Shown: positions 17,949 through 47,402, counted from the stretch's first letter. The stretch: DNA of 47,402 nucleotides from Candidatus Micrarchaeota archaeon (GCA_029557835.1 JAKQHW010000060.1:1-47402), one strand, 5' to 3'. A program made the numbers and translations. Notes: a model not told the origin generated them from the sequence alone.

Positions 17949-18338
17949 AGCGAGAAGGCGCCGGACGTGCAGGTGATGCTCGACGACGTGCTGGCGCGCA
18001 CCGGGCTGGGGCACGTGGTGTCCCCGCGCATAATCTGCATGAGGAGCCGCGGGGCGAAGGCGAGGGCGTATGCGAGGATATGGAGCCTCCCCGCGATATG
18101 GAGGGAGGCGCTGGAAATCAACCCGTTCTATGTGATTGAGGTTTTGGGCGAGAACTACGACCCGCTGCCCGAGGAAAAGAAGAGGAAGGTGCTCATCCAC
18201 GAGCTGCTGCACATACCTAAAAAATTCTCAGGCGGGCTTGTGCCGCACACCCACCCCGGGGGAAGGATAGACGCGAAGGCTGTGGAGAAGGTATACCGGG
18301 AATATCTGCAGAACAGGTCAAAGGAACCGTATGAGTAG
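17937..18338 (+). CDS. putative zinc metallopeptidase (HExxH)
   Basis: 133 aa with VLIHELLHIP (HExxH) in a small SprT/DUF45-like layout. The start is GTG 17937 or ATG 17943. Confidence 0.6.
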   Translation: MRMHSEKAPDVQVMLDDVLARTGLGHVVSPRIICMRSRGAKARAYARIWSLPAIWREALEINPFYVIEVLGENYDPLPEEKKRKVLIHELLHIPKKFSGGLVPHTHPGGRIDAKAVEKVYREYLQNRSKEPYE

Positions 18339-21308: not shown

Positions 21309-22448
21309 ATGGTGAACATGGAAATAGGGGACTGTTTCACTTTCGAGCCCGCGAAGGGCATTCCCGTGCACAACTGGTTCTACTACAAGGAGGCTTATTC
21401 CCCGCAACTGGTGGGATGGGCGCTGGAAGAGCTGGGGGTTGTGGGTGCGGAAACGGGAAACCAGGGACGGAAAGCTGTTTTCGACCCGTTCTGCGGGATA
21501 GGCACCACCATGCTCTATGCGAAGGAGCACGGGCTGCTCGGGATTGGGATTGATGTTTCGCCCCTTGCGCTGTTTGTCTCCAAAACCAAGTGCGCGGATT
21601 ATTCCGAAAAGGACGCGCAGGAGGCGGAAAAGGAACTGAAGGGTATTTTTTCGGAAAGGAGAGAGGCGGGCTGGGGATGGGAATTCGAGTTGTTCCATCC
21701 TTCACGGTTTTTCGGGAAGAGGAACTACAACGACATCTGCTTTTTGCGGGAGAGGGTTGAGGGGATCGGGAATGAGAAGGTGGGCGGATTGTTCCTGCTT
21801 GCGCTCCTCTCCATCCTGCCGCAGTGCGGATTCTTCATCAAGGACGGGGGCGTCCTGCGGGAGCAGAAGGGCAAGAGCGCCATGCCTGTGAAGGATGCTT
21901 TCAGGCGGAAGGTGAAGAGGATGCTCGCGGATTTGCGGGAAAGGAGGGCGGGCGGTGCGGAGCCGGAATTAAAGTTGGAAGATGCGCGGGAGTTTTCTGA
22001 TACGGAGGCGGATGCGTTCGTCACTTCCCCGCCCTACCTGAACAACATAGACTATTCCAAGGTATACGGGCTGGAATTGAGCCTGCTCACGATGCGGAAG
22101 GAGAGCACGAAGGAGATGAGGGATAGGGAGGTGCGTGGCTTCATCACTGGCGAATCTTTCGGTGGCGCGCCGCCCGAGGCCGCGGAATATTCTGGCATCC
22201 CAATTGCGGGGACCTATTTCGCGGACATGGAGCGGGTGCTGCGGAATTTGAAAAGGATTGCGCCTAAAGGGTGCATGGTCGTGGGGAACGCGGTGCTGGG
22301 CGGGAGGCACATCCCGGTTGATGAGATGCTTATTTCCATTGGGGAGCGGATTGGGTTTGAGGGAAGAATTGCGGCTGCCAAGGAGCGGGTTGCGGACGTG
22401 AGGCCCCAAAAACTGAGGGCGAGGGAGAGCGCAATCATATTCAGATGA
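21309..22448 (+). CDS. DNA methyltransferase (N6-adenine or N4-cytosine), SPPY type
   Basis: Motif I is FDPFCGIGTT and motif IV is FVTSPPYLNNIDY. GC content is host-like. ATG 21318 is an alternative start. Confidence 0.85.
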   Translation: MVNMEIGDCFTFEPAKGIPVHNWFYYKEAYSPQLVGWALEELGVVGAETGNQGRKAVFDPFCGIGTTMLYAKEHGLLGIGIDVSPLALFVSKTKCADYSEKDAQEAEKELKGIFSERREAGWGWEFELFHPSRFFGKRNYNDICFLRERVEGIGNEKVGGLFLLALLSILPQCGFFIKDGGVLREQKGKSAMPVKDAFRRKVKRMLADLRERRAGGAEPELKLEDAREFSDTEADAFVTSPPYLNNIDYSKVYGLELSLLTMRKESTKEMRDREVRGFITGESFGGAPPEAAEYSGIPIAGTYFADMERVLRNLKRIAPKGCMVVGNAVLGGRHIPVDEMLISIGERIGFEGRIAAAKERVADVRPQKLRARESAIIFR

Positions 22449-24063
22449 TTTCATTGAGTATGAGCTTCTTCGTCTCATCGCTCACCGAAGGGTTCCTGCA
22501 CAGGTCGCTCGCCATCCTCCTGGAGATGGCAGAGCCGTTCCTGGAGATGAAGATTTCGTCCGGGCAAGGCACAAGCAGGGATATTTTCCTTCCGTTCGGC
22601 CTACTCCCCTCGTATATATCCGCGTTGTAAGGCCCGCCCATCGCCGCGAATGCGACATCCGCGACGGTTGCTCCGGAGGATGCCTCTATGGGGCGGCGGT
22701 CCTTCCTTCCGGGCATGTAAACCGAATAGGTCCTGCAGCCGTTTCCGCCGTTGGTTTTATGCGGTGGCACCTCTATTGTGCCCCTCACGTCCCTTGCGGC
22801 GGCGCTAACCGGCCTCAGCATCTCGTTCATAGCGTTTACAAGGTTCATCTTATCCATGTCCTCGTGGCCCTTGTAGCCGAGCCGGCCGGACCTGCCGCAG
22901 CAGGAATCCAGGTAGCTTTCGGCGTCCATAAGCTGGATTTCGCAGGGGACCAGGACGCCGAGGAACGGCATGTATCCCGTTATGTGTATTGCGGTGTATC
23001 CGCTGGCTTTTGGATGGTTGACATAATCGTTCAGGTCGTTGGTGTGGAACCTGAATCCCTTGTCCTTCAGGACCCTTTCGTAAAGGAGCTGGCCTATCCC
23101 GAAAACCGTGCCCGGGTCGCATGGAAGAACCACCCGGGTGGCTATCATGTCCATTATATCGTCAAATTCCTTGCCACGGTCCTCCATCTTGAGGACTATG
23201 GATGCCGCGGACTTTACCCGCGGGTTATGGAAAACCGCCTGGCTTATTATGCCTTGGAACCCCTGGAGGGGCATGCCTTCGCGGCAGCCTATCGAGAACG
23301 CCTCGGTGACCATCTCGTTCAGGGAAGGCGCCGCATTAGAATAGATCTGGATGATTGGCTGCATCCTCAGCTTCATCTCCGCAAGCTTGTCCTGGAGCTC
23401 CGGGTCCCAGTTGAGGCTGCTTTCCCTCAGCATGTATGCGGCGCCCATCCAGCCGAACATCTCGGCCATGGGGAAGAACACTTTCCTCATCTTTGTGGAA
23501 AGCATCCTCTTGGTCGCTGGGGCGAGCTCCTCCCTGAACGGGGAGCCCTCGGCCCAATCCGCCTCATCAAGGCAGTAGTCCGCAATCTTCACTATCAGCG
23601 CGGGCAGGCTTGCGCCTCCGCCCAGGATCAGCTCCGCGTAATTGGGCAGGCGGGCGTATGGGTTGTAATCATACGCATTGGAGGAGAGGCTTGCGTACTG
23701 GTTGAAGCACTTCTCAAGCTGCGAGAGGAACTCCTCCGGGGTTACGCCGAGTTCCTGCCTGAAGTCCGGGGCACGGGCGATTTTCTTTTCCAGCAGGCCC
23801 ATTACCCGCTTCCGTTCATCAACGTCCCTTCCGCCTCCGCGCAGGTGGTGGATGTATGCGAGGGATACGGTGAGCGAGAATGCAAGGTTTAGCTCCGGCT
23901 CCGGCTTTACCCTCCTGGCTATCATTTCGAAGTATTTTGAGGAGATGTCGCTGACCTTCCGGCCGTGCGGCTCCCTCCTGCGCAGCGAGCGCCCGAGCGA
24001 ATCGCTGATTATGCCGCAGGAGCGCGGGTATGGGTTCGGATTTCCCACACATGTGTTGCTCAT
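22441..24063 (-). CDS. RelA/SpoT-homolog-like protein (degenerate HD region, synthetase-like domain, TGS-like domain)
   Basis: RVKSAASIVLKMEDRGKEFDDIMDMIATRVVL, HPKASGYTAIHITG and PCEIQLMD match RelA_SpoT synthetase motifs. LIVKIADYC...FFPMAEMFGW resembles the end of the HD domain. VYMPGRKDRRPIEASSGATVADVAFAAMG resembles TGS. Confidence 0.75.
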   Translation of the reverse strand: MSNTCVGNPNPYPRSCGIISDSLGRSLRRREPHGRKVSDISSKYFEMIARRVKPEPELNLAFSLTVSLAYIHHLRGGGRDVDERKRVMGLLEKKIARAPDFRQELGVTPEEFLSQLEKCFNQYASLSSNAYDYNPYARLPNYAELILGGGASLPALIVKIADYCLDEADWAEGSPFREELAPATKRMLSTKMRKVFFPMAEMFGWMGAAYMLRESSLNWDPELQDKLAEMKLRMQPIIQIYSNAAPSLNEMVTEAFSIGCREGMPLQGFQGIISQAVFHNPRVKSAASIVLKMEDRGKEFDDIMDMIATRVVLPCDPGTVFGIGQLLYERVLKDKGFRFHTNDLNDYVNHPKASGYTAIHITGYMPFLGVLVPCEIQLMDAESYLDSCCGRSGRLGYKGHEDMDKMNLVNAMNEMLRPVSAAARDVRGTIEVPPHKTNGGNGCRTYSVYMPGRKDRRPIEASSGATVADVAFAAMGGPYNADIYEGSRPNGRKISLLVPCPDEIFISRNGSAISRRMASDLCRNPSVSDETKKLILNEII

Positions 24064-35472: not shown

Positions 35473-36194
35473 ATGAATTATTCTCCTTCATGGAGGCGAT
35501 GGGCACAAGCGAAATCGCCCTTGTTGCTGCCTTTTTCATAGGGCTGATGATGGCGCTCAGCCCCTGCCCCCTCGCCACCAACATAACCGCGATAGCATAC
35601 ATCTCAAAAAACATGAAGGGCGGGAAAGGGACTGTCCTCCTGGTGGGCGCCGCATATACGCTGGGGAGGATGCTCGCATACGTTGCAATCGCCTCCTTTG
35701 TCGTGTTTGTCGGGCTCAACGTCCAGCTCGTATCCTTGGCCCTGCAGGCGTACGGGGATAAAATCCTGGGCCCGTTCCTCATTATTGCGGGAGTGCTGCT
35801 CCTGGGCATATTCAGGATAACCCTTCCGGGCGGGGGAAAGATGCTGGAAACCGCGAGGGGGAGGCTGGCGCACTCCGGGCTGCTGGGAAGCTTTTTGCTG
35901 GGGGTGGTCTTCGCACTCGCCTTCTGCCCTTTCAGCGCGGTGCTTTTCTTCGGGATGCTCATTCCCCTGGCGGTGGCCGCGGGGGACGGGCTGCTCATCC
36001 CTGCCGCATTTTCAATCGCAACCGGGCTTCCGGTAATCCTGTTTTCGTTCATCCTTGCATATGGCATCTCCAGGCTGGGCGAGATGATGAACGTGGCAAG
36101 TTCGATTGAGAAATACATGCGGATTGCAGTTTCTTTCGTTTTCATAATCGTGGGAGTTTGCTACACGCTGGGCATGACGCTGAACTGGATTTGA
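35469..36194 (+). CDS. DsbD_2/CcdA-like membrane protein (possibly ArsG-family permease)
   Basis: ALSPCPLATNI and FALAFCPFSAV motifs in a six-helix protein. ATG 35490 is an alternative start. Confidence 0.7.
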   Translation: MNELFSFMEAMGTSEIALVAAFFIGLMMALSPCPLATNITAIAYISKNMKGGKGTVLLVGAAYTLGRMLAYVAIASFVVFVGLNVQLVSLALQAYGDKILGPFLIIAGVLLLGIFRITLPGGGKMLETARGRLAHSGLLGSFLLGVVFALAFCPFSAVLFFGMLIPLAVAAGDGLLIPAAFSIATGLPVILFSFILAYGISRLGEMMNVASSIEKYMRIAVSFVFIIVGVCYTLGMTLNWI

Positions 36195-36205
36195 ATGGTG
36201 GCATT

Positions 36206-37139
36206 ATGGGGGTGCTGGAAGATTTCTCGGGATGGGTCGTTTTTGAGAAGCTCGGTTTCGAGGCGGGCGGCGCAGCCGGGGAGGCGCTCAATTTCTTCAT
36301 CTACGACACGATAAAGGTCTTCATCCTGCTCTCGGCGATGGTTTTCCTGGTTTCCCTCATAAGGGCGTCCCTTAGCCCGCATAGGATAAGGCAGATGCTG
36401 GGCGGGGGGAGGGAAGGGGCAGGGAACCTGATGGCCGCGCTCCTGGGCGTCCCAACCCCGTTCTGCTCATGCTCCGCAGTCCCCCTGTTCATAGGGTTTG
36501 TGAAGGCGGGGGTGCCGCTGGGGATAACGTTCTCGTTCCTCATCTCCTCCCCCATGGTGGATGGGGTGGCGATCGCGATGCTTCTGGCCCTGTTCGGATG
36601 GGAGGTGACGCTCATCTATGTCTCGGTGGGCGTGGCTGTCGCGACCGTTGCGGGAATCATCATAGGGAGGATGGGGCTGGAAGGGGGCCCAGGCGGGGAA
36701 CGGGGAGGAAGAAAAAACGGGCTGGAAGGAAAAAATCGCTTTCGCGAAGGCGGAGACTGCGGCGATAGTGACGAGGGTCGGGCCGTATGTGCTCGTGGGG
36801 GTTGGGGTGGGGGCTTTCATCCACGGGTTCGTTCCCGCAGATTTCCTTGCGGGCATCGCAGGGAAGGAAAATCCGCTTGCGGTGCCGGTTGCGGTGCTGG
36901 TGGGGATTCCGCTGTATTCCAATGCCGCCGGAACCATCCCCATAGTTCAGGCGCTCATGGCGAAAGGCATGGCCATGGGGACCGCTCTCGCCCTCATGAT
37001 GAGCATAACCGCGCTTTCGCTGCCGGAGATGGTCATATTGAGGAGGGTGCTCAAGCCGAAGCTGATAGCGGTGTTTGCTGGCATACTTGCCGTTTCATTC
37101 GTGCTGGTTGGGCTGCTGTTCAACGCAATAATCGGGTAG
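36206..37139 (+). pseudogene. ArsP-type (PF03773-like) permease interrupted by a +1 frameshift
   Basis: The N-terminal half (TPFCSCSAVPLFIGF) is in frame 2 up to about 36685. The C-terminal half (EEKKTGWKEKIAFAK...PYVLVGVGVGAFIHGFVP...LFNAIIG, stop 37139) is in frame 0. The switch falls within G-runs at 36683-36700. Confidence 0.7.
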
Positions 37140-37161
37140 ATGGGAGGGGGAGGCCGGGATT

Positions 37162-37270
37162 AACCGGAAACCCGCAACGGGAAACTCTAGATGGGCCCAT
37201 GGAGATTTTTCAAACTGTTTCCGGTCCTCAGTTTCCGGTTTCCCGAAGTAAAAAAGGCGGGTTTCCCGTT
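37162..37270. repeat. att-like module, copy 1 (degenerate)
   Basis: aaccggaaac at 37162-37171. A degenerate tRNA-3'-end-like core tgggcccatggagattt follows at 37192-37208. Inverted motif copies are gtttccgg (37217-37224), gtttccggtt (37231-37240) and gtttcccgtt (37261-37270). The module is homologous to 46141-46278. Confidence 0.45.
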
Positions 37271-38140
37271 ATGGGTATCGAGTTTCCAGATTGTAGCAAA
37301 GCACAATCCCTTTCCGCAAGGCAGATTTCCAGGGAGCTTACAAAGGATTGGCCGCGGCTTAAGGAACAGCTAACCTTCCTTGCGCGGCATCTGACCAAAT
37401 GGAACCTTGTGAAAGCTATTGGAATCCTTTCAGAGGCGCGGAAAAGCCGCTTTTTGCGCAGGAAAACCCCCAAGTACGGCTCTATGAACAAGGGCTTTAC
37501 GGAAGAGGAATTGGAGCGGTTTTTCAGCGCCATAGACAACCCGAAGGCGCACCTGCTCTTTTCCTTCCAGGCGATTCTTGGGCTGCGCATAGGGGAGGCC
37601 ATAAGGGTGAATGTAAAGGACCTTAACCTGCGCAGCCGCGAGCTGCGCATCTTCACGGAGAAGAGCGGCAAGACGGACTATCTCCTGCTTCCGGAGAAAC
37701 TGTTCGACGCCGTCTTGAGCTACATCGGCTCCTTCGAAAAGGACATCGCGAAGGCGCAGGGCCATCTCTTCTTCTCCCTAGAGGAAGGGCTGAAGACCGA
37801 CAAGACCAAGCCGCACATCACCTCCCAGACCGCAAGGAAATTCTTCATGAAATACGTGAAGAAGGCCAAGCTGGACGAGGTTTATGGGTACAGCGTTGGG
37901 GAAAGCCCGAAGACGCTGTATAGGTTGAGCACCCATAGCTTGCGGCACTATGCAATTACGAACTTCTGCAGGAAGAATGGGGGAAACGTGATGCTGGCCT
38001 CCAAGTTTGCCAGGCACACCAACCTCCAAACCACGATGATATACGTGCACACGGCCAAGAATGAGCTTTACGAGAGCATAGAAAGGGCGAACAACGATGA
38101 GCTTTTGGAGAAGGTGAGGAAGATGCAGGAGGGGATTTGA
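37199..38140 (+). CDS. tyrosine recombinase/integrase (copy 1)
   Basis: GLRIGEA, STHSLRHYAIT and HTNLQTTMIYVH supply the R...HxxR...H...Y catalytic set. The start is ATG 37199 or 37271. The track fuses it to an upstream out-of-frame region as a 660-aa ORF. Confidence 0.9.
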   Translation: MEIFQTVSGPQFPVSRSKKGGFPVMGIEFPDCSKAQSLSARQISRELTKDWPRLKEQLTFLARHLTKWNLVKAIGILSEARKSRFLRRKTPKYGSMNKGFTEEELERFFSAIDNPKAHLLFSFQAILGLRIGEAIRVNVKDLNLRSRELRIFTEKSGKTDYLLLPEKLFDAVLSYIGSFEKDIAKAQGHLFFSLEEGLKTDKTKPHITSQTARKFFMKYVKKAKLDEVYGYSVGESPKTLYRLSTHSLRHYAITNFCRKNGGNVMLASKFARHTNLQTTMIYVHTAKNELYESIERANNDELLEKVRKMQEGI

Positions 38141-38190: not shown

Positions 38191-39432
38191 ATGTCAAAGC
38201 CGTGGTTAAATTCCTTTTTAGAGAAGGCTAGTCCTGTCAAAGAAAGAGTACAACTAGAAAAGATTTTGGCGGATGAATTGATCAAAAATGTCTATAATTT
38301 TGATCTCAGCAGCTATGGCGAAAAGCAAGAAGTAGAAAGAAGAAAACTGCTAGCAAGCGCATTTGATTTACTTATAGCGGCCGAGTATTATCGCGGGGTT
38401 TCTCATTCTGGTTGGATTTACTGTCCTGACAAAACGCCATATTTATTCTACCCATATACAAACTGTTGCCCCAGATGCGTTTTGAAAAATGTATTTGTCT
38501 TCCACGAATCAAACAAATTAGAATCAGGTAGTATCGGCTCTTCGACATCTAGGCTATTATGCATTTTTCTAAAATCAATATTTGAGTATAAGAAAAAAGA
38601 GATTGAAGTACTAAAAAGTGTAGAACCAGTTGATGTCATTATTAGGGATAAGAAGAATAAATATGTTTTTTTGGCTGAAATAAAGGCTTCTCCTTTAGTT
38701 ACTCCGCCCCTATGCGCAACTTCTCAGCGCCTCACCGAAGAAACTGCAGGCACATCCGTAGAACGCGGCCATTCAAGTTCGGATAATTCTCATTTATATG
38801 GATCAGAGATTCATTTAATGATACCAGCCAAGAAAAACGATAAATGGGTAACAAAATACTTCAATATCGGAATTAGAGCTAATTTAAAGGATGAGGACTG
38901 GGCTTATCGCGGAATGCTTGAATTACTAAAAAATGACAAGAACTTTTTTGGTGAATTTTACTCATTCTGGAAAGAAGCATTTTCATACTGTTACCCAAAA
39001 AAACAGCAAGATATTTTTTGGCTAACAAATGCGTGTGGCGCCCCTTACCCAATACCTAGTGATTGGCCTGGCAGACGGAGAGGTGGCGGCTTTGAAACCA
39101 TATCAGATTCAAAAACTAGCGTAGGTTTAGACAGAACAGATGATATCAAGAAAGGCATATACCAAGTCTTGAAGATTGGGTCTGAAGCCAAGCCAATAAC
39201 TTCAGATTGGGCGCTTAAAGTAGGCCTAATATCAAATATACATCCAGTTCGACACTTTTCTGAATATCTCGCTTCACTAAAGGACATTGTTTGGACCAGC
39301 TACCCGAAACCAGTTCGCAAAGCTGGTGATCTGCCTTCAGAAAAAGACATATACAATTTGTTTGATGGAATAATTTCGCTGACCGATACAATAGTACGGG
39401 ATGATTGGGTTAAACAAACATTTAAGTTCTGA
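38191..39432 (+). CDS. PD-(D/E)xK nuclease-like protein, candidate restriction endonuclease
   Basis: EPVDVIIRDKKNKYVFLAEIKASP gives a D-x14-E-I-K signature. A Cys cluster YCPDK...CCPRC lies upstream. The gene ends 8 nt before the methyltransferase gene. I prefer ATG 38191 (track start TTG 38173). Confidence 0.6.
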   Translation: MSKPWLNSFLEKASPVKERVQLEKILADELIKNVYNFDLSSYGEKQEVERRKLLASAFDLLIAAEYYRGVSHSGWIYCPDKTPYLFYPYTNCCPRCVLKNVFVFHESNKLESGSIGSSTSRLLCIFLKSIFEYKKKEIEVLKSVEPVDVIIRDKKNKYVFLAEIKASPLVTPPLCATSQRLTEETAGTSVERGHSSSDNSHLYGSEIHLMIPAKKNDKWVTKYFNIGIRANLKDEDWAYRGMLELLKNDKNFFGEFYSFWKEAFSYCYPKKQQDIFWLTNACGAPYPIPSDWPGRRRGGGFETISDSKTSVGLDRTDDIKKGIYQVLKIGSEAKPITSDWALKVGLISNIHPVRHFSEYLASLKDIVWTSYPKPVRKAGDLPSEKDIYNLFDGIISLTDTIVRDDWVKQTFKF

Positions 39433-39440
39433 GGCGACGT

Positions 39441-41234
39441 ATGCAATTAAATCATGAAGAACTAGCGTTTCTAAAAATCAGAGCCAACGTAGCATTAGAT
39501 GGAGATATCCAACTCGCAGAAAATGAGGTAATTAGCTTATTCGATGCCGTCAAAAGAGTACAAATTGTTTCTGAGCTTCCAAAAGAATGGATGTGGGCGT
39601 CTAAGTATTTCACTGGAGCCAAAAGAAAGAATTCACTCATGGGTTTTTTATGCTCAAAAAAGAAATACTCTATTCTTGATACTGTAAGAAAACTAAGTTT
39701 TATTGAAGAAGTTTGGTTCGATAAATGCTCGGCTGATACTATAAGCTCACAAAATTATGATTGGCTTACTACTATAACGAATTGCAAGGGTGGACAACTA
39801 GAATGTGCGATACCTTTAATGGCAGCAGCGGAATTACTTTCTAAGACAAAAAAAATTGATACCGAACAGCTAAATGAAACCAATTTAGTAAATCTATTGA
39901 TTACGAATGAAGAAAATGGAGATATCCATGATAGTCTTATTGACAGCAAATCTAAATTAACTCCATCTTCAATTCCGCATGTACACCGTTTGCACAAATA
40001 TAAAGCAAAATTCTTTCCACGGATGATTCGTTCTTTGCTAAATACAGTTTCAAACGATGCACCTCGGATGGACGGAAATCACATAATGATACTAGATCCG
40101 TTTGTGGGTAGTGGCACTACGCTAGTGGAAGCTGCATTACTGGGATGTCCTAGCACCGGTATAGATATAGACCCCTTATCCTGTTTGATTTCAGAATCTA
40201 AGATATATCTCCTAAATAGTGATTTTCGTGATATTAGATCAGCATGTCATAGCATCATTGACTTACATAAAGAAATTAATCCTAATAGAGAAAATGGTAC
40301 TCCTTACAAATTTCCTAAAGTGATAAGCAAAAAATTTGATAAATGGGGAACAATAGAAGAAAAAGAAGCATATGAAAATGAGATTGATACGTGGAGAGCA
40401 ACAATATCCACTATCAAGGAAAAAAGGATTAGAGATCTATTCTTTGTGTGCCTAAGTGATAGTCTAACCAGAAAGTTTAATATCAGAATGATGGGTACTG
40501 GCGTAGGCAGATTTGCATTGGAGATATCATCAAAGGGCATAACCAGTATGATGTATCAAAATATTGAGCATTTGATGAGATCGAGTTTTACATGCAACCA
40601 GTTAAGAATCGCTTACTCTCTTCGCCTCCCATCTGCAGAAGTAAAACAAGGAGACGCAAGAAAAATGGATGTAAAAGACGAATCGAAGAGCATAATTTTG
40701 ACTTCGCCACCTTATTTGCCTGCATCTTCCGGAAGAGAAAATTACTTAACTGGGAAATCTATTTCAATCACTGCGTTGGGCCTACTTGATGAAAAAGAAT
40801 TACTACAATATGATGAGAATAGTTTAGGGTCTATGAAAGCAAATTCTTCAGCCAATAAAGATGGTATCCCGGAAGCCGTATACGATTTATTTGAATGGTT
40901 AAAGAAGGATGAATCTAGGGCACTTAAAGCCGAACCAATATTGGCATATTACCAAGACATCAAAGCGGCATTAGAAGAAACTTATCGCGTTTTGATGCCA
41001 GGCGGCCTGGCAATTTATGTAATCGGGAAAGAAAGTGTTTTTTATCAGTTTTCTACTAGAAAAGTGCTACGCCGTGTGATGTGCGACCAAATATTCATAG
41101 AACTTGCAAAAAACGCAGGCTTTGAAGTTGTTAAACAAATTGATATAGAGCTCGATAAAAGGAATCGAAACGCTAGACCTCGCTCTAAAGACTCGTACTT
41201 CGAATCAGCTATAATTATAAAAAAACCTAGATAA
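39441..41234 (+). CDS. DNA methyltransferase (N6-adenine or N4-cytosine), SPPY type, with long N-terminal extension
   Basis: Motif I is ILDPFVGSGTT and motif IV is ILTSPPYLPASSGRENY. It has the same architecture as the host-GC methyltransferase at 21309-22448. Confidence 0.85.
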   Translation: MQLNHEELAFLKIRANVALDGDIQLAENEVISLFDAVKRVQIVSELPKEWMWASKYFTGAKRKNSLMGFLCSKKKYSILDTVRKLSFIEEVWFDKCSADTISSQNYDWLTTITNCKGGQLECAIPLMAAAELLSKTKKIDTEQLNETNLVNLLITNEENGDIHDSLIDSKSKLTPSSIPHVHRLHKYKAKFFPRMIRSLLNTVSNDAPRMDGNHIMILDPFVGSGTTLVEAALLGCPSTGIDIDPLSCLISESKIYLLNSDFRDIRSACHSIIDLHKEINPNRENGTPYKFPKVISKKFDKWGTIEEKEAYENEIDTWRATISTIKEKRIRDLFFVCLSDSLTRKFNIRMMGTGVGRFALEISSKGITSMMYQNIEHLMRSSFTCNQLRIAYSLRLPSAEVKQGDARKMDVKDESKSIILTSPPYLPASSGRENYLTGKSISITALGLLDEKELLQYDENSLGSMKANSSANKDGIPEAVYDLFEWLKKDESRALKAEPILAYYQDIKAALEETYRVLMPGGLAIYVIGKESVFYQFSTRKVLRRVMCDQIFIELAKNAGFEVVKQIDIELDKRNRNARPRSKDSYFESAIIIKKPR

Positions 41235-41259: not shown

Positions 41260-42717
41260 TTACTCATTAAGTAAATTTGATAAATCACCGGCGATTGAAC
41301 GTTTTCTTGAAGAACGCTCAGTAGCTTGCAAAAGTTGTAACATTTCATTTTCCTTAATCATATAAAACGAGTTTCGTATTTGGGGAACCTTCTTATCTTG
41401 TAAAAATTTGCTATTGAAAATCTGACCAAAGGACCATTCTAAAGAAGAACTCTCGTATCTAAGGTCTTTATTTCTAATCATATCCAAGTATCTTTCCAAT
41501 AGTATGGCCAATGAGCTAATTGGGATGAATACTACACATTCTCCATCCATAAGTTTGTCTTCAAAACGTTTACAAAAATCTTCGAGTTTGCTTTGATCTG
41601 CAAAATTCAAGCCTACAAAAGCCAAAGTAACTTTTACATTATTACCAATGTTCCTGGCACTAACTAGGTAATTTTCATATTTCTCTGATATCGCTTTTTT
41701 CAAATCGGTTTCGGTTTCAAACTTTGAATCAACCAAAACTAAAAATTCTTTTTGATTAGATGCATTCCTAACATAAAAAGCCGTATCCGGCACTGCTTCT
41801 CCAGAAGAATGATGGCCCCCCTCTTCAAGGTTCAATAGAAAAATATGGTCAAAGGCTACCTTCGTCAAATTCTCAAAATCAACCCAATTTTCCTTACCGT
41901 TCCGCTTCATCCATCTTGCCAGATTTAATGCATTTAGGATATAACGAGGATTAGTACTCGCATTGCTGACCATCACCTTTATTTTTTCGTCTTTTAAGGT
42001 ATCAAAAAATAATTTTTCTTCTTCTAAAATTTTCAAAGTAAATGAAACGTCACCATCAAGTTCCTTTATGTTTTTTCCATCAATTTTTGAATATGACGAA
42101 ACTAATCTAACTGCTGTAGTAAGGTATTGCATTTTCTCAAGAAATTCGTGCATCTCTTCGTTTTCAGAATCGATAAAAAGGATATTCATTTTTCTGCCTA
42201 TAGATTTTTTTAAAAAATCTATTAACAATTTATCATCATCGCTGAAAATAAAGAAAAAAGATGCATCAAAACCATCTAGAGAACCATCCATAACTGCGAA
42301 ATTTGAATTTGCATCCCAAAGTTTGGTGCTTTCCAAGCGTCTGTTAGGGAGAATTACTTTTATGAACCGCATTAATACCTTCTGAAAATCAATAGATAGT
42401 TCGGTCAAATCTAAAATATTGATTTCATTACTATGCGTTTTGCAAGTAACTGTCACGATATCCCCAGAACGACTGGATTTTACCTCGTTATTGCAATCAT
42501 CTTCCAAGCAGTGCGTTGGTTTTACTAATTTCTCGTGCAAGTAACCGTTATCTACTAGATATTTCAGCCGATTCGGAGCGATTAGATTCGTTGCCTCGCG
42601 ATATCTTCTAGCATATCTAAACTCTTTAAGAAGTATTTGAATTTCTGCTACATCAATAGGCATTTGTTTCACCAGAGAATAACCTGACTGCGGATTTTTC
42701 ACAATCTTCCATGTCAC
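41260..42717 (-). CDS. uncharacterised protein with wHTH-like N-terminus, Cys/His cluster and C-terminal PD-DxK nuclease-like motif
   Basis: LKYLVDNGYLHEKL, then HCLEDDCNN...VTCKTH, then VPDTAFYV-x-LVLVDSKFE (PD-x18-D-S-K). The start is 42717 or ATG 42663, and either overlaps the upstream gene. Confidence 0.55.
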   Translation of the reverse strand: MTWKIVKNPQSGYSLVKQMPIDVAEIQILLKEFRYARRYREATNLIAPNRLKYLVDNGYLHEKLVKPTHCLEDDCNNEVKSSRSGDIVTVTCKTHSNEINILDLTELSIDFQKVLMRFIKVILPNRRLESTKLWDANSNFAVMDGSLDGFDASFFFIFSDDDKLLIDFLKKSIGRKMNILFIDSENEEMHEFLEKMQYLTTAVRLVSSYSKIDGKNIKELDGDVSFTLKILEEEKLFFDTLKDEKIKVMVSNASTNPRYILNALNLARWMKRNGKENWVDFENLTKVAFDHIFLLNLEEGGHHSSGEAVPDTAFYVRNASNQKEFLVLVDSKFETETDLKKAISEKYENYLVSARNIGNNVKVTLAFVGLNFADQSKLEDFCKRFEDKLMDGECVVFIPISSLAILLERYLDMIRNKDLRYESSSLEWSFGQIFNSKFLQDKKVPQIRNSFYMIKENEMLQLLQATERSSRKRSIAGDLSNLLNE

Positions 42718-43849
42718 TGATACAATGGGCCGTTTTTCCTATCCGGACTGTTTTCCCATTAAGCGAAACAATGAATGTCCTCTCAGAAGTTTTGGACAAT
42801 AGATCATGCGCACCCTTCAAAAAACCGGGCGCAGTTTTCTCAGCCTGATCAAAGTCTTCAACATCCACGGAGACATCGTGATAGCCGCTGCTGTCCCTAA
42901 TCGTAAAACCTCTATATTCTATCTTGTCTAGTGCCCCTACTATTCTTTCCTTTTCTTCTTGTTTTATTTTCAATTTATCAAGAGTCTTCTTTGCTTCTGC
43001 AATTGAGGATTTAACAATACTCTGCCCTATGGTCTCTAGTTTGCCCGTCTTGCCCATCGCTTCTTTGAGTTCCTTAGTTATTCTTTTCTGTAGTTTTTCG
43101 CTATTATATTCAACTCTCCATCCTGTTTCAAATAACAAATTAAGTATGCCATCAGATAACTCTCGATCCGGTATGCTGCTAACATATTTCAGTTCTTCAC
43201 CCTCACCGACTATTTCAAAGTCTGAAAATCTCAACGGATATGCGACTGTCCAGACCACTGAAAAATTTTGATTAGAACGGATATCTCGGTTATTAGCCCT
43301 GAAGTTAAATTGAGGAATCTTTCTAGAGCCATATTCCGAATAAATGCGTAGCTTCAGGTTATTTTTTTCCAAAACAACCGGTTCAATCCATAGTTTAGAG
43401 ATATGGCCAACGTTCCATTGCTGCGTAAAATTCTGCAATGTACGTTCGATGTTATCTAGGTTCTTTCTTTTGCCGACCAGAGTTGTCCCTGACAGAACAG
43501 TAGTACTTTTTACCTGAGCTTGCTCAAGTATTTTATTTGCATGCTCCTCAGTATGTGTAGTTATAAGAAAAATTAGGATATCGTCCTTAGTCCGGATACT
43601 ATCAATATTATCAAATTTATCGCGAAAGAGGGTAACAAGCGCTTTTTTTACTTTATTTACGCTGATGCGTGACCCAACAATCTTTTTCCAAACGATGAGT
43701 ACGCTCTCTAGTTTCGTTTGATCCAGACTCAATAAAGAATCAACAAGTACTCTGCCTTTTGGTTGCTGCCCAGTAATAACTGTGAATAAGATCTTCCTAT
43801 TACTTGCACGGATTCTTCTCAGCAAACCCTCTTTTTCTTCGTACTGCAT
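42653..43849 (-). CDS. hypothetical protein (398 aa), no recognisable motif
   Basis: A long ORF in AT-rich DNA, where random ORFs are short. It is co-oriented with and overlaps the downstream nuclease-like gene. Confidence 0.6.
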   Translation of the reverse strand: MQYEEKEGLLRRIRASNRKILFTVITGQQPKGRVLVDSLLSLDQTKLESVLIVWKKIVGSRISVNKVKKALVTLFRDKFDNIDSIRTKDDILIFLITTHTEEHANKILEQAQVKSTTVLSGTTLVGKRKNLDNIERTLQNFTQQWNVGHISKLWIEPVVLEKNNLKLRIYSEYGSRKIPQFNFRANNRDIRSNQNFSVVWTVAYPLRFSDFEIVGEGEELKYVSSIPDRELSDGILNLLFETGWRVEYNSEKLQKRITKELKEAMGKTGKLETIGQSIVKSSIAEAKKTLDKLKIKQEEKERIVGALDKIEYRGFTIRDSSGYHDVSVDVEDFDQAEKTAPGFLKGAHDLLSKTSERTFIVSLNGKTVRIGKTAHCISDMEDCEKSAVRLFSGETNAY

Positions 43850-43898
43850 AGAGCCATTTCCGTTCTTTATTTTAAATATTTAACTTTTCTCGCAAAAT

Positions 43899-44285
43899 TC
43901 ATTTTCCGCGTATTCCCTTGAGGAAATTGTCTGTTATCACTCTATTCCGTGCTATTTCGGACCTCTGCTTCCTCACATTTTCCCGACTGGTCTTTATGTT
44001 CTCAAGATCCAACTGTCCGCTTATTTTACGAACTTCCCTGGCCGTACGCTCTCTTTCCCTCTCCAGTTTGAGCTTTTCGGCCTCGACTCTAGTATCTGCG
44101 TTATACTTCCTTATCCAAGTATTAATCCCAAAAGTGATCAGCCCACATATGAAAGCAAGGGCAGAAGCGGGCAGCAAAAAAGACATTTGAGGTTGGGAAA
44201 TGGCTCCGAGCAGGGCAATTGCTGAGACGATCATACAACCTGCCGGAACATTCTGAATTGTGAGTATCTTTTCGAGATTATTCAC
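43899..44285 (-). CDS. small membrane protein with charged coiled-coil tail
   Basis: Two hydrophobic helices (CMIVSAIALLGAI, FLLPASALAFICGLITFGI) are followed by the Arg/Glu-rich EAEKLKLERERERTAREVRK. GTG start; ATG 44234 is an alternative. Confidence 0.5.
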   Translation of the reverse strand: MNNLEKILTIQNVPAGCMIVSAIALLGAISQPQMSFLLPASALAFICGLITFGINTWIRKYNADTRVEAEKLKLERERERTAREVRKISGQLDLENIKTSRENVRKQRSEIARNRVITDNFLKGIRGK

Positions 44286-44441
44286 TTCCTAGCACCTATC
44301 CTAATTGGTATTACGGGTTATTTGTTTATTTTACTTCGCTCTGCATGGCAACTGTCCTCCAAACCTGAATAGTGGCATCACCGGAAGGGAGGTCTCCCCG
44401 GCTTTATAAGGAAAGTGCGAGCATTCTGCGTGGGGATTGTG

Positions 44442-44735
44442 ATGAAAGCAGATGAAGAAACAGTGGCTAAGGTCTGGGAAAAAGGAAAGCGGGTTCCGGG
44501 AATAGATCCGGCTAAATGGAGAAAAGACGATTGCAATGCTTGGATTCTGCGCAGTGCATACGGGGACCGCAACTCTGATTACGGATGGGAAATAGACCAT
44601 ATAAACGCTGGGGGAAATGATGACCTGTCCAATAAGCGACCTCTGCAGTGGAAGAACAATGTTGACAAAAGCGATGGCCGCCTCAAATGCAACGTTACGT
44701 CTCAAGGTTCGAGCAATGTAGGGACGGGGCAGTAG
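44442..44735 (+). CDS. small HNH endonuclease
   Basis: GWEIDHINAGGNDDLSNKRPLQWKNNVDKSD is an HNH core. TATA-like ggctttataagg lies about 35 nt upstream. I prefer ATG 44442. Confidence 0.75.
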   Translation: MKADEETVAKVWEKGKRVPGIDPAKWRKDDCNAWILRSAYGDRNSDYGWEIDHINAGGNDDLSNKRPLQWKNNVDKSDGRLKCNVTSQGSSNVGTGQ

Positions 44736-44742
44736 TGATTTC

Positions 44743-44952
44743 TTGACAAACTATATCGTATTGGAAGTCGGAAAATCGGTCAGAACTGAGTTTTTGATGA
44801 AAAGCGGGGAGTTCGGGGAAACCGAAGACGCGGTCGTTATCGGCAGGGTGGAAGCGGGTTCAAAAGAAGAAGCAATTGACCTTGCCATATCCCTCCCTTA
44901 CTGCAAAAACAGGGAATTTGACAACCTTGTCGCGTATGAAATTAGTGGTTAG
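44743..44952 (+). CDS. hypothetical small protein
   Basis: 69-codon ORF with a TTG start directly after the HNH gene. No motif recognised. Confidence 0.3.
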   Translation: MTNYIVLEVGKSVRTEFLMKSGEFGETEDAVVIGRVEAGSKEEAIDLAISLPYCKNREFDNLVAYEISG

Positions 44953-45449
44953 CGCGAGTTGCGGACTACCTAGAAATTATTCAGATGGTTTTGAGACAGT
45001 TTTGAGATAGTTTTCTGAATAGCCATTGAGAAACAGGACATGGTCGCTCGTTCTCGCCTTTCGGCGTGCTCGTTTTATTTCTTTGCCCTTCGCTCAGGCT
45101 GAAAAGCACTTAAAGTTCCAGCCCTGCGGGTTCGCTCAGGAGAGCGAAAACTTTAATGTGCATTTCGCCTTCGCTCCGGGCACGCTACTGCTAAAGAGAA
45201 TAATAACTCGCACCGAACGAGCGACCTCTGCTTCTGCGACGTGGGGAAGTTTTGCTCGCTTCACTCCTTCCAGCCCTTAGAACGTGAAATGGCGGGCTTC
45301 GGAGTGAAGCTCGCTCTAAAACTTCCCCGAAAGGAGAAGCCGGGGAAGGGAAGTGGTGAAAAACATGGAAGAAAATGGGAAAACTGAGGTCGATGAAAGG
45401 AAGTGGGCGCTCTACGAGCAGAGCCGCGAAGTCGGAAAATGGTGATGCC

Positions 45450-45812
45450 ATGCAGAATTTCAAGAATTTGAAGGTTTATGAGGAGGCCTTCCGTCTGTCA
45501 AAGGACATTTTCGAGTTCATGGAAGACAAGCAGATGAGCCGGAGGGCGAAGGAGCAGCTCCTTGCCTCCGCGTCTTCCATCTGCGCGAACCTGGCTGAAA
45601 TGGGCGCTATAGACTCCAGGAAGGCACAAAATCAAAAGTTAGTCACTTGTATCGGAGAGGCCAATGAGACCGAGTATTGGCTGGATTTGTGCAATTCCCT
45701 GAAGATTATCCCGCAGAGGGAGCATCTCAATTTCATGTCTTGCCTAGTGCGCATCCGTTCAATGCTCTGCAAGCTGAAAAAATCGATTGAAAGGGGTGAT
45801 GACGATGATTAG
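45450..45812 (+). CDS. four-helix-bundle protein (S23 ribosomal / 23S rRNA intervening-sequence protein / Avd-like family)
   Basis: FKNLKVYEEAFRL...EQLLASASSICANLAEM...GEANETEYWLDL...IRSMLCKL matches the family pattern. I trimmed the start to ATG 45450. Confidence 0.8.
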   Translation: MQNFKNLKVYEEAFRLSKDIFEFMEDKQMSRRAKEQLLASASSICANLAEMGAIDSRKAQNQKLVTCIGEANETEYWLDLCNSLKIIPQREHLNFMSCLVRIRSMLCKLKKSIERGDDDD

Positions 45813-46029: not shown

Positions 46030-46197
46030 ATGACGGATTTCAAAAACCACAGGGCCCAAAACCCAAGATATTTGAAACCCCCTAAAAATGGGCTAAAAAA
46101 GGAAGAAGGAAAACCTAATTGTACAGACGTAAATACTGGCAACCGGAAACCCGAAACCGGAAGCAAAATTAATGAGAGTGGGCCCGCGGAGATTTGA
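46030..46197 (+). CDS. 55-codon basic ORF reading into the att-like core (possible integrase N-terminal fragment)
   Basis: Hand-translated as MTDFKNHRAQNPRYLKPPKNGLKKEEGKPNCTDVNTGNRKPETGSKINESGPAEI. A strong Shine-Dalgarno-like gaggtga lies 6 nt upstream. It is too short for the supplied track. Confidence 0.35.
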   Translation: MTDFKNHRAQNPRYLKPPKNGLKKEEGKPNCTDVNTGNRKPETGSKINESGPAEI

Positions 46198-46278
46198 ACT
46201 CCGGACCAGACGCCTGCGTATCAATCATTCCACGAAGTGAGGACGCTGGGTTTCCCGTTCCGGGTTTTCAGTTTCCGG
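46141..46278. repeat. att-like module, copy 2 (well preserved)
   Basis: aaccggaaac (46141-46150) and aaaccggaag (46154-46163). The tRNA-3'-half-like core is at 46179-46213. Inverted copies are gttccgggtt (46257-46266) and gtttccgg (46271-46278). Confidence 0.5.
46179..46213 (-). other. tRNA 3'-half-like fragment (T-arm plus acceptor 3' strand); not an intact tRNA
   Basis: The reverse complement reads GCGTC TGGTC CGGAG TTCAAAT CTCCG CGGGCCC A. This gives a perfect 5-bp T-stem, a 7-nt TTCAAAT loop, a 7-nt acceptor strand and a discriminator A. No matching 5' acceptor strand, D-arm or anticodon loop lies to the right. Confidence 0.55.
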
Positions 46279-47129
46279 CATGTGGTGAAGCACACTCACT
46301 TCCGGCAAGGCAGATCTCAAGGGAATTGACCAAAAATTGGCCTCAAATCAAGGAGCAAATTTCTTTCCTTGGGCAGCACCTCACCAAATGGAATTTAGTA
46401 AAGACGATTGGAATACTCTCCGAGGCGCGCAAGAGCCGCTTTTTGCGCAGGAAGACGCCCAAGTACGGCTCAATGAACAAGGGCTTTACGGAAGAGGAAT
46501 TAGAAGCCTTTTTCAGCGTTATAGATGAGCCGAAGGCGCACTTGCTTTTTTCTTTTCAGGCAATTCTGGGGCTTCGCATAGGGGAAGCCATAAGGGTTAA
46601 TGTGAGTGACATTAACCTGCGCAGCCGCGAGCTGCGCATCTTTACGGAGAAAAGCCATAAGACCGATTACCTACTTATGCCTGAGAAGCTCTTTGACAGC
46701 GTCCTTCGCTATATCGGTTCTTATGAGACGGACATCGCCAGGGCGGATGGCTTCCTTTTTTTCTCATTCAGCCACGGAAGGAGGACCGAAACAACGGAGC
46801 CGCACATCACCACCGAAACCGCAAGGAAGATGTTCGTGCAATACGTCAGGAAAGCCAAGCTGGACATGGCGTATGGGTACAGCGTTGGGAAAAACCCCAA
46901 AACCCTGTATCGGCTGAGCACGCACAGCCTGCGGCACCACGCGATTACCAATTTCTGCAGGAAGAATGGGGGAAACGTGGTCCTTGCCTCCAAGTTTGCG
47001 CGGCATACCGACCTGCAAACCACGATGGTTTACGTGCATACTGCGAAGAACGAGCTTTACGAGAGCATAGAAAGGGCGAACAATGATGAACTTCTGGAGA
47101 AGGTGAGGAAGATGCAGGAGGGGATTTAA
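46194..47129 (+). CDS. tyrosine recombinase/integrase (copy 2)
   Basis: Paralog of 37199-38140, with most aligned residues identical by eye and the same GLRIGEA / HSLRHHAIT / MVYVH motifs. There is no ATG near the 5' end, and the track start is a TTG inside the tRNA-like core. Confidence 0.85.
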   Translation: MNSGPDACVSIIPRSEDAGFPVPGFQFPACGEAHSLPARQISRELTKNWPQIKEQISFLGQHLTKWNLVKTIGILSEARKSRFLRRKTPKYGSMNKGFTEEELEAFFSVIDEPKAHLLFSFQAILGLRIGEAIRVNVSDINLRSRELRIFTEKSHKTDYLLMPEKLFDSVLRYIGSYETDIARADGFLFFSFSHGRRTETTEPHITTETARKMFVQYVRKAKLDMAYGYSVGKNPKTLYRLSTHSLRHHAITNFCRKNGGNVVLASKFARHTDLQTTMVYVHTAKNELYESIERANNDELLEKVRKMQEGI

Positions 47130-47167: not shown

Positions 47168-47402
47168 ATGGAAAACATCAATGTTTCAGACTGGCTAAAT
47201 GCTGCAGAGATTGATGCAAAAGCAGCTAGAGTTTTATTAAGAGAAGGACTTTACTCAACCGCAGTTTTTCATACTCAGCAGGCATACGAAAAAACATACA
47301 AGGCTTACTGGGCCTTCATTAAACATGACCCAGACTTGCTGAAAAAGTTTGGGCATCTCACTATTGACAAGAAGAAATTTGACGACATACATAAAGATTC
47401 GA
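47168..47402 (+). CDS. HEPN domain protein (5' part; runs off window end)
   Basis: Hand-translated from ATG 47168: MENINVSDWLNAAEIDAKAARVLLREGLYSTAVFHTQQAYEKTYKAYW... is a typical HEPN N-terminal helix pair. The surrounding DNA is AT-rich. Confidence 0.65.
   Translation, partial: MENINVSDWLNAAEIDAKAARVLLREGLYSTAVFHTQQAYEKTYKAYWAFIKHDPDLLKKFGHLTIDKKKFDDIHKDS

Follow-up and report, generated by a model that had tools for sequence, protein, structure and literature searches.

In this study, we describe a two-gene cassette within a 47,402-nt stretch of DNA from a Candidatus Micrarchaeota archaeon (GCA_029557835.1 JAKQHW010000060.1:1-47402), hereafter the window, consisting of gene A, which encodes a 398-aa protein of an uncharacterised family, and gene B, which encodes a predicted DNA endonuclease. 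Comparison with homologs indicates that A and B are a genuine conserved, mobile and previously unannotated gene pair, and a credible candidate for an antiviral or anti-plasmid system with a nuclease effector. On balance we lean, by a small measure, towards the view that the pair is an autonomous module by which archaea exclude foreign DNA or mount immunity against it. An earlier reading, made from the sequence alone (the sequence-only reading), had joined both genes to a small membrane protein in a three-gene cluster. The three co-oriented minus-strand open reading frames (ORFs) that it described are all present, as is the 49-nt AT-rich spacer with a TATA-like element that it had noted behind the membrane gene:

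42653..43849, minus strand: gene A, 398 aa, cassette partner of an uncharacterised family (ORF, and profile homology to the partners of all gene B homologs)
41260..42663 (41260-42717), minus strand: gene B, predicted DNA endonuclease, 467 aa from ATG 42663 or 485 aa from GTG 42717 (AlphaFold2, Foldseek, family alignment)
42653..42663, minus strand: 11-nt overlap of the gene A stop and the gene B start, with GGTGA 6 nt upstream of ATG 42663
43850..43898, minus strand: AT-rich 49-nt spacer upstream of gene A with TATA-like TTAAATATTTAAAA (read from the sequence)
43899..44285, minus strand: 128-aa membrane protein with a GTG start, a local neighbour (hydropathy, GC 0.45)

At 36% GC, about 7% of codons would be expected to be stops, a rate that rules out chance as the origin of open frames as long as 398 and 467 codons. 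An overlap of either 11 or 65 nt between the two genes had been considered, depending on the start codon, and the shorter one is the better choice, with GGTGA, the start chosen by the gene caller (467 aa) and the alignment of homologs all fitting ATG 42663. Translational coupling through the overlapping stop and start codons is probable. The TATA-like element is centred about 25 nt ahead of the gene A ATG, and the spacer could possibly hold a promoter for gene A itself, from which an mRNA with a short leader or none would be made.

Both families were at first invisible, with a word-indexed search of 5.8 billion proteins returning only genes A and B themselves, and 2 matches being recovered when the gene A alignment was used as the query. 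This ORFan impression is a sensitivity artefact of the word-index prefilter, because exhaustive HMMER searches over 1.84 billion representatives (clusters at 50% identity), together with tblastn, recovered the families. The gene B family comprises 36 clusters whose proteins have 450-530 aa, with 22 of these clusters reaching E <= 1e-10, and tblastn placed relatives of gene B on 8 haloarchaeal plasmids (PLSDB; 20-25% identity), in 7 haloarchaeal genomes and on 10 metagenome contigs. Where the organism is named, the loci all belong to Halobacteria, and the rest, the window included, belong to low-GC metagenomic lineages or other archaea. Haloarchaeal genera or plasmids with the cassette number at least 13, and other archaeal lineages have it as well. 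Close relatives reside on plasmids of cultivated haloarchaea, e.g. Haloferax gibbonsii pHG3, which carries an intact cassette (WP_156224483.1 and WP_156224485.1). Virus collections (four IMG/VR scans and a tblastn search of INPHARED) held no relatives, and judged by these collections the cassette is not virus-borne.

The association of the two genes is strict. At every locus with upstream DNA (about 30), a gene A homolog of 400-450 aa lies on the same strand directly upstream of the gene B homolog; the loci counted, denoted by L numbers, are plasmids (L003-L005, L022-L025), genomes (L014-L019) and metagenome contigs (L006-L012, L020, L026-L039). The only truncated copy of gene A is found at L029, a 481-kb contig on which gene B is intact. 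Stop and start codons overlap by 1-23 nt in all 17 loci tabulated, and the genes are a few nt apart at two further loci, L026 and L027. The two families also co-evolve, with pairwise identities that correlate at r = 0.96 (Mantel test, 0 of 5000). Co-occurrence of the homologs in defence islands elsewhere had been proposed as a check on the original idea, and it is borne out for A and B at every locus with upstream DNA, mostly amid defence genes.

The pair also moves as a pair. Between Halorubrum laminariae (L016) and a TARA scaffold (L020), DNA identity of 94% extends over 3,248 bp only, a common stretch that consists of the pair with about 50 nt ahead of it and about 430 nt behind it, set in unrelated flanks, and the same cassette-limited likeness is found between L005 and L019. 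Because the identity of L016 and L020 is confined to the cassette amid unrelated flanks, we regard the A+B pair as the unit of inheritance and transfer. Larger units can move as well: a 15-kb island of a Halobacterium noricense plasmid (L004 85-15245), in which the cassette is joined by a DUF1156 methylase, a helicase and AddAB-like genes, recurs at 98.3% identity on a Haloplanus sp. C73 scaffold (L017 3178-18340), and this identity points to a recent transfer between genera. The idea that a third, small gene is conserved behind the pair was considered and ruled out, as the matches there were only at the DNA level and among closely related elements.

At L034 (3121-4666) and L039 (295-1355) the gene B homolog is split in two frames; both may be pseudogenes or sequencing errors. 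Together with the truncated gene A at L029, these split copies suggest that the cassette decays in some hosts. A second conserved overlapping pair, encoding proteins of about 410 aa and 669 aa, precedes the cassette in Haloarcula rubra (L018 5394-8628) and on a Natrinema salinisoli plasmid (L023 4396-7627). Its 669-aa protein has hydrophobic segments, its DNA is 92% identical between the two loci, where it is common to both together with the cassette, and neither of its products has a Pfam or PADLOC match.

The membrane gene stands outside this unit. Hydropathy agrees with the two hydrophobic helices and the charged helix that had been described in its product, with hydrophobic segments that cover roughly residues 7-31 and 32-58 and a charged tail or helix behind them, and matches of the 128-aa protein to Pfam and PHROGs are all below threshold (EMC3/TMCO1, E 0.0016; holin phrog_20, E 0.0017). 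If the cluster were a three-gene system, this protein could be its anchored sensor or effector, as in Kiwa or Zorya, an arrangement for which its position on the same strand, 49 nt upstream of gene A, speaks. However, none of 13 other loci checked has a small transmembrane protein upstream of the pair; the GC content of the membrane gene (0.45) differs from that of the cassette genes (0.39 and 0.34) and resembles the backbone of the integrase element rather than the low-GC cargo; a TATA-like element separates it from gene A; and where cassettes of different elements are compared, their homology sets in only about 50 nt ahead of gene A. Kiwa- and Zorya-like membrane-anchored systems have a conserved membrane component, which the pair lacks in those 13 loci. 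We consider the three-gene claim highly improbable and, from these comparisons, essentially refuted.

Regarding gene B, a model predicted by AlphaFold2 (AF2) from a 31-sequence alignment (pLDDT 86.5, pTM 0.75; the single-sequence prediction, with pLDDT 36, was unusable) gives the following layout:

Residues about 1-46: winged helix (AF2 model)
Residues 49-91: four-stranded zinc ribbon with C52, C57, C74 and H77 (AF2 model)
Residues 93-190: alpha/beta domain (AF2 model)
Residues 196-274: helical domain (AF2 model)
Residues about 294-400: FokI/BspD6I-like PD-(D/E)xK domain with an alpha-beta-beta-beta-alpha-beta core, then C-terminal helices (AF2 model)
42433..42510, minus strand: codons of the zinc-ribbon ligands C52, C57, C74 and H77 (family alignment)
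41722..41874, minus strand: codons of the catalytic motif E264 ... P292-D293 ... D312-S-K314 (alignment and model)

The elements that the sequence-only reading had picked out in this protein all reappear in the model: the winged-helix-like segment as a helix-helix-helix-strand N-terminus modelled as a winged helix, the Cys/His cluster as the four residues that form the zinc ribbon, and the PD...DSK nuclease-like signature as the family's conserved catalytic motif on a PD-(D/E)xK core. Among the 31 family members, C52 is kept in at least 90% and the CxxC...C..H pattern in most, and a few match the zinc-finger Pfam models CPxCG_zf and Zn_Ribbon_TF. All 31 carry E264 and K314, at least 90% carry D293 and D312, and in the model these four residues occupy helix and strand 2/strand 3 positions of the predicted core. 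The structure prediction and Foldseek search suggested earlier returned a restriction-enzyme-like fold, the top matches in the PDB being nine chains of the nickase Nt.BspD6I (E 1.3e-4 to 7e-4, prob 1.00, ~318 columns), and the small subunit of R.BspD6I (2p14) was matched as well (prob 1.00, TM 0.54 on the target). A Foldseek search of the BFVD viral structures gave nothing at E <= 1e-3. Neither gene B nor its 31 relatives have a family-identifying match in Pfam or among PDB sequences, nor does the window's gene B in NCBIfam; a weak match to BrxA (E 0.025, below the cut-off, 1 of 31 members) was dismissed. With the motif and the core fold both found and no curated sequence model matched, gene B is a predicted PD-(D/E)xK nuclease of the FokI/BspD6I type.

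That the best structural match is a site-specific nickase raises the idea that the cassette serves its element's own DNA processing, with B as a site-specific nickase or endonuclease and A as an accessory in plasmid or island replication, transfer or integration. The plasmid location agrees with this, the pair lying by primase and VirB4 genes in L024 and by integrases in the window and L023. Against it, such elements only rarely carry the cassette, an accessory that jumps among unrelated backbones and is also found in chromosomal islands without replication or transfer genes, and the window's element already has an integrase of its own. The relaxases and Rep nickases that are known have HUH or other folds and not FokI-type domains. 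We judge a role in DNA processing to be very unlikely.

A restriction-enzyme-like fold also calls for a look at the neighbouring genes, which lie in the same low-GC block:

38191..39432, plus strand: type II restriction endonuclease (PADLOC REase_II PDLC03440, E 3.4e-117, full length)
39441..41234, plus strand: type II N6/N4 DNA methyltransferase (Pfam N6_N4_Mtase, E 1.5e-11; PADLOC MTase_II, E 4.9e-30)

What had been described as a convergent restriction-modification-like pair is, by PADLOC and Pfam, a complete type II restriction-modification (R-M) system, the methyltransferase of which (39441-41234) converges on gene B with stop codons 25 nt apart. This proximity, together with the fold of gene B, could suggest that this methyltransferase has in B its cognate restriction endonuclease, or a second one, and that the block is one ordinary R-M system, the scenario that the sequence-only reading had itself named as a refutation. 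Because a full-length type II endonuclease already adjoins the methylase, directly preceding it, gene B is not its missing endonuclease, and the scenario is excluded. Moreover, gene B homologs are not consistently found beside a methylase, their invariant partners being gene A homologs. This conserved neighbourhood already contradicts a cognate-endonuclease role, to which we give almost no credence.

Gene A had been described as fitting no family and as an ORFan. The first part stands, as searches of Pfam, NCBIfam, PHROGs, PADLOC and PDB sequences gave no match; the ORFan label was wrong, since the window protein is homologous to the proteins directly upstream of gene B homologs (hhalign 99%, E 8.4e-18, 357 columns). 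Alignment of the family (398-454 aa) reveals invariant F..WN, E-x-G and F-x-F-R motifs, corresponding to the invariant residues F141 and N146 (F..WN), E172 (EYG), and F181 and R184 (F.FR), along with a variable charged helical segment. Neither the alignment nor the members have a detectable domain in Pfam, PADLOC or PDB sequences, and no nuclease motif is seen in the alignment. That gene A might be a degenerate paralog of gene B was ruled out (hhalign prob 0.3%).

Searches for known systems gave no component. The three window proteins have nothing significant in Pfam, NCBIfam, PHROGs, PADLOC or PDB sequences, and PADLOC-DB v2.0.0 (5,027 models) yields 0 matches for them or for 13 gene A homologs, and one stray JetB match (E 0.0017) among 31 gene B homologs. 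This agrees with the earlier view that no named defence system (R-M, BREX, DISARM, Zorya, Kiwa, Shedu, Gabija and others) is represented. In the literature we found no description of such a pair and no mention of the RefSeq accessions of the haloarchaeal homologs, within a scope in which supplements lay outside sequence search.

The surroundings of the homologs are those of defence islands. About 13 of the 15 loci with flanks of at least 5 kb annotated or scanned have recognised defence genes within 10 kb, a raw count without a background rate, and as judged from these neighbourhoods the cassette is a recurrent resident of defence islands in unrelated genomes. Its neighbours are:

Window: type II R-M
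L011 and L018 (within 10 kb): type I R-M and Mrr
L004/L017, L014 and L029: DUF1156 methylase with SNF2/DEAD helicase
Loci including the L004/L017 island: AddAB-like nuclease-helicases
L015: BREX BrxB/BrxC
L016: GmrSD, Schlafen/AlbA_2
L020: McrBC, RE_NgoFVII, VapBC
L003: PLD, helicase and DUF6361
L028: SIR2_2
L025: MazF, HsdR_N
L022: DUF499, AAA ATPases
L005: methylase and helicase

The recurrence of DUF1156 methylases and helicases within a few kb at no fewer than three independent loci (L004/L017, L014, L029), and of a methylase and helicase in L005, is what would be expected if the pair were not autonomous but served as an accessory to a larger system of methylase and helicase (DUF1156 methyltransferase with SNF2/DEAD helicase, DISARM- or BREX-like). 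Yet such genes are absent from the window and from L011, L016, L018, L020, L022-L025 and L028, their orientation and distance vary where they do occur, and near-identical cassettes sit in unrelated flanks. A dependent role of this kind strikes us as quite unlikely.

Returning to an autonomous immune module, we propose the following course of events. Gene B would bind DNA via its N-terminal winged helix and zinc ribbon and would cut or nick it with its C-terminal FokI/BspD6I-type PD-(D/E)xK domain, using E264, D293, D312 and K314. Gene A, made in fixed proportion to B through the overlapping stop and start codons, would bind B in a complex and act as a regulatory or sensing subunit, which holds the nuclease off host DNA and licenses it on invading DNA in response to modified viral DNA or an infection cue. 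Since no methyltransferase travels with the cassette, self-protection would have to come from modification-dependence, as in type IV systems, or from gating by A. We infer DNA cleavage, the A-B complex, the role of A and the defence phenotype, with the predicted structure and motifs as the basis for DNA binding and cleavage by B. In its fullest form the proposal is that the pair is an unrecognised, so far archaea-only autonomous immune system, in which the new family A senses an invader or infection and licenses the FokI-type nuclease B without a methyltransferase, NTPase or second messenger. This would be a minimal design of a sensor and a restriction-fold effector, without a counterpart among the named systems, and we put this form forward tentatively, as somewhat short of probable.

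Several points weigh against this proposal. The functional argument is one of guilt by association only: the sequence-only reading had taken the context to argue for immunity or exclusion, and while the neighbourhood is overwhelmingly one of defence genes, the defence function is itself deduced from that context. The plasmid loci L023 and L024 show integrase, conjugation and primase genes and no recognisable defence genes. The full-length likeness of gene B to Nt.BspD6I is modest (TM ~0.3), and in Pfam scans no sequence model of FokI-type domains matches gene B or its 31 relatives. Because gene A has no detectable domain, the role proposed for it is speculation, and profile scans found no modified-base reader domain (SRA, EVE, YTH, DUF262-type) in A or B, which weakens the type IV version; the alpha/beta domain of B and the whole of A are without an assignment. 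DefenseFinder and the catalogues published after 2023 lay beyond the scope of sequence search, and the pair may possibly have received a name recently.

The overlapping gene order invites one further explanation, i.e. an addiction module of the toxin-antitoxin (TA) kind, with B as nuclease toxin and A as its neutraliser, that persists since the loss of its plasmid or island kills the cell, and not by blocking viruses. Plasmids and integrated elements are the main carriers of the pair, many type II TA operons have the same kind of overlap between an upstream gene and the toxin gene, and TA genes are frequent nearby (VapBC in L020, MazF in L025, CcdA in L011). On the other hand, A and B greatly exceed the typical size of TA partners, and a simple toxin would not be expected to have a DNA-binding N-terminus as elaborate as that of B (winged helix, zinc ribbon, alpha/beta domain). 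If A were an essential antitoxin, its truncation beside an intact B in L029 would kill the cell, except where B is silenced. Addiction as the reason for the persistence of the pair is in our view unlikely; addiction and defence are compatible, as R-M systems show.

Comparison with known systems helps to delimit the candidate immune module. Its nearest structural relatives are the type IIS enzymes of the FokI / N.BstNBI / R.BspD6I group (Nt.BspD6I 2ewf, 5liq; small subunit 2p14), with which the gene B model has in common the C-terminal PD-(D/E)xK fold, the E...PD...(D/E)xK constellation and the predicted plan of N-terminal DNA-binding region, helical linker and C-terminal nuclease. It differs from them in having no sequence-level similarity, and whereas FokI has a triple winged-helix N-terminus, gene B has a single winged helix with a zinc ribbon and an alpha/beta domain. 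The partners differ too: R.BspD6I has a 186-aa catalytic small subunit, gene A is a protein of 400-450 aa without a nuclease motif, and no methyltransferase is co-conserved with the pair, methylases being present only in some flanks as part of other systems. The pair thus lacks the defining features of type IIS R-M, having no co-conserved methylase, a partner that is not a catalytic subunit and no match to a sequence model.

With type IV systems (McrBC, GmrSD, Mrr), the pair has in common a nuclease without a cognate methylase in a cassette that moves as two genes only, as well as residence in islands of the 'immigration-control' type beside R-M, where GmrSD, McrBC and Mrr adjoin it in L016, L020 and L011, respectively. 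Unlike these it has no GTPase or AAA+ motor, no DUF262/HNH, no detectable modified-base reader and no sequence or profile match. Two-gene sensor/effector systems (Card1/Can2, the long-B pAgo bAgaN, Hachiman HamA, Shedu SduA) likewise combine a restriction-fold nuclease with a second protein, and bAgaN has been reported to be structurally similar to R.BspD6I (PMC10620215). In the A+B pair, however, the partner is not an Argonaute, a helicase or a CARF/SAVED protein, and PADLOC gives no match. What is new here is the joining of partner family A to a nuclease effector; nuclease-effector defence candidates as such are known and not categorically new.

Beyond CRISPR and R-M, little of archaeal immunity has been charted. 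The field is already rich in defence candidates, to which the pair adds a well-delimited and testable archaeal one, compact, with genes that are always together, co-evolve and move as a unit among defence islands. The predicted effector domain of gene B shares its structural type with the FokI cleavage domain of genome-editing nucleases, and the relatives on plasmids of cultivated haloarchaea make the hypothesis directly testable in Haloferax volcanii genetics. If the proposal is true, a system and a partner or sensor family, both new, would be gained, and, if the enzyme is modification-dependent, a new kind of type IV enzyme.

The setting of the cassette within the window matches the AT-rich, integrase-bounded island described before. 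The chromosome of the window has about 58% GC and is archaeal, as indicated by a tRNA-intron endonuclease gene at 16752-18212, with no feature that speaks for DPANN, and a composition scan shows a block of 35-38% GC at ~38.1-44.3 kb. The block begins directly past one tyrosine recombinase gene (int1), a second (int2) follows 9 kb beyond, and together they bracket the region:

37199-38140, plus strand: int1, tyrosine recombinase (313-aa Phage_integrase gene as called on an identical JGI contig)
46194-47129, plus strand: int2, tyrosine recombinase (Pfam Phage_integrase, E 9.5e-18)
37162-37183 (plus strand), 46141-46162 (plus strand) and 46252-46273 (minus strand): 22-nt repeat AACCGGAAACCCGCAACGGGAA (3 copies vs 0 expected)

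The two integrase regions (37162-38140 and 46141-47129) are ~82% identical in DNA, with the likeness opening at the 22-nt repeat and closing exactly at the stop codon, and the cargo behind each integrase is mutually unrelated. This arrangement indicates that int1 is the left end of an integrated element bearing the R-M system and the cassette, and that int2 is the start of a second, tandem element. The twin integrase units look as if related elements had inserted in tandem at a single site, or else like an integron-like array with defence genes as cargo. The same DNA was independently assembled in two other metagenomes (JGI 3300010356, L001; ENA ERZ27257442, L002), in which the three genes are without any difference.

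At other positions these assemblies do differ. All 10 differences between the window and the ENA contig L002 (4,763 bp) fall inside 45270-45403, just upstream of a 23S_rRNA_IVP gene, and may mark a spot of local hypervariability or a contig end that is chimeric. Compared with the JGI contig L001, which is otherwise identical, the window lacks 23 nt at 36679, within an ArsP_1 permease gene (~36183-37139), and because of this the permease is frameshifted and an artificial 660-aa ORF (36158-38140) runs into int1; the difference stems from a strain variant or pseudogene, if not from an error of assembly.

Further genes lie between the cassette and the end of the window. Divergent from the membrane gene are two small genes, encoding 106 aa (44415-44735, plus strand; a weak HNH-endonuclease PHROG match only, E 0.0067) and 69 aa (44743-44952, plus strand; no match). 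They are followed on the integrase element by a 145-aa protein (45375-45812, plus strand; PF05635, E 1.4e-18) of the 23S_rRNA_IVP family, which we take to be four-helix bundles that include the Avd proteins of diversity-generating retroelements (DGRs); a library scan of the window proteins showed no reverse transcriptase near this gene. The first ORF past int2 (47168-47402, plus strand; MENINVSDWLNAAEIDAKAARVLLREG...), which runs off the window end, has weak PDB matches to 1wol (E 0.006) and 1o3u (E 0.16), presumably both HEPN-domain proteins, and the second element seems to carry defence or TA cargo too.

In the high-GC chromosome, three very long ORFs of 981, 1132 and 1285 aa (3605-6550, plus strand; 6590-9988, minus strand; 10042-13899, minus strand) have no Pfam match at E <= 1e-5, and may be real genes (e.g. 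for surface proteins) or antisense artefacts of GC-rich DNA. A 540-aa ORF at 22441-24063 (minus strand) in this archaeal chromosome contains a RelA_SpoT nucleotidyltransferase domain (E 5e-11).

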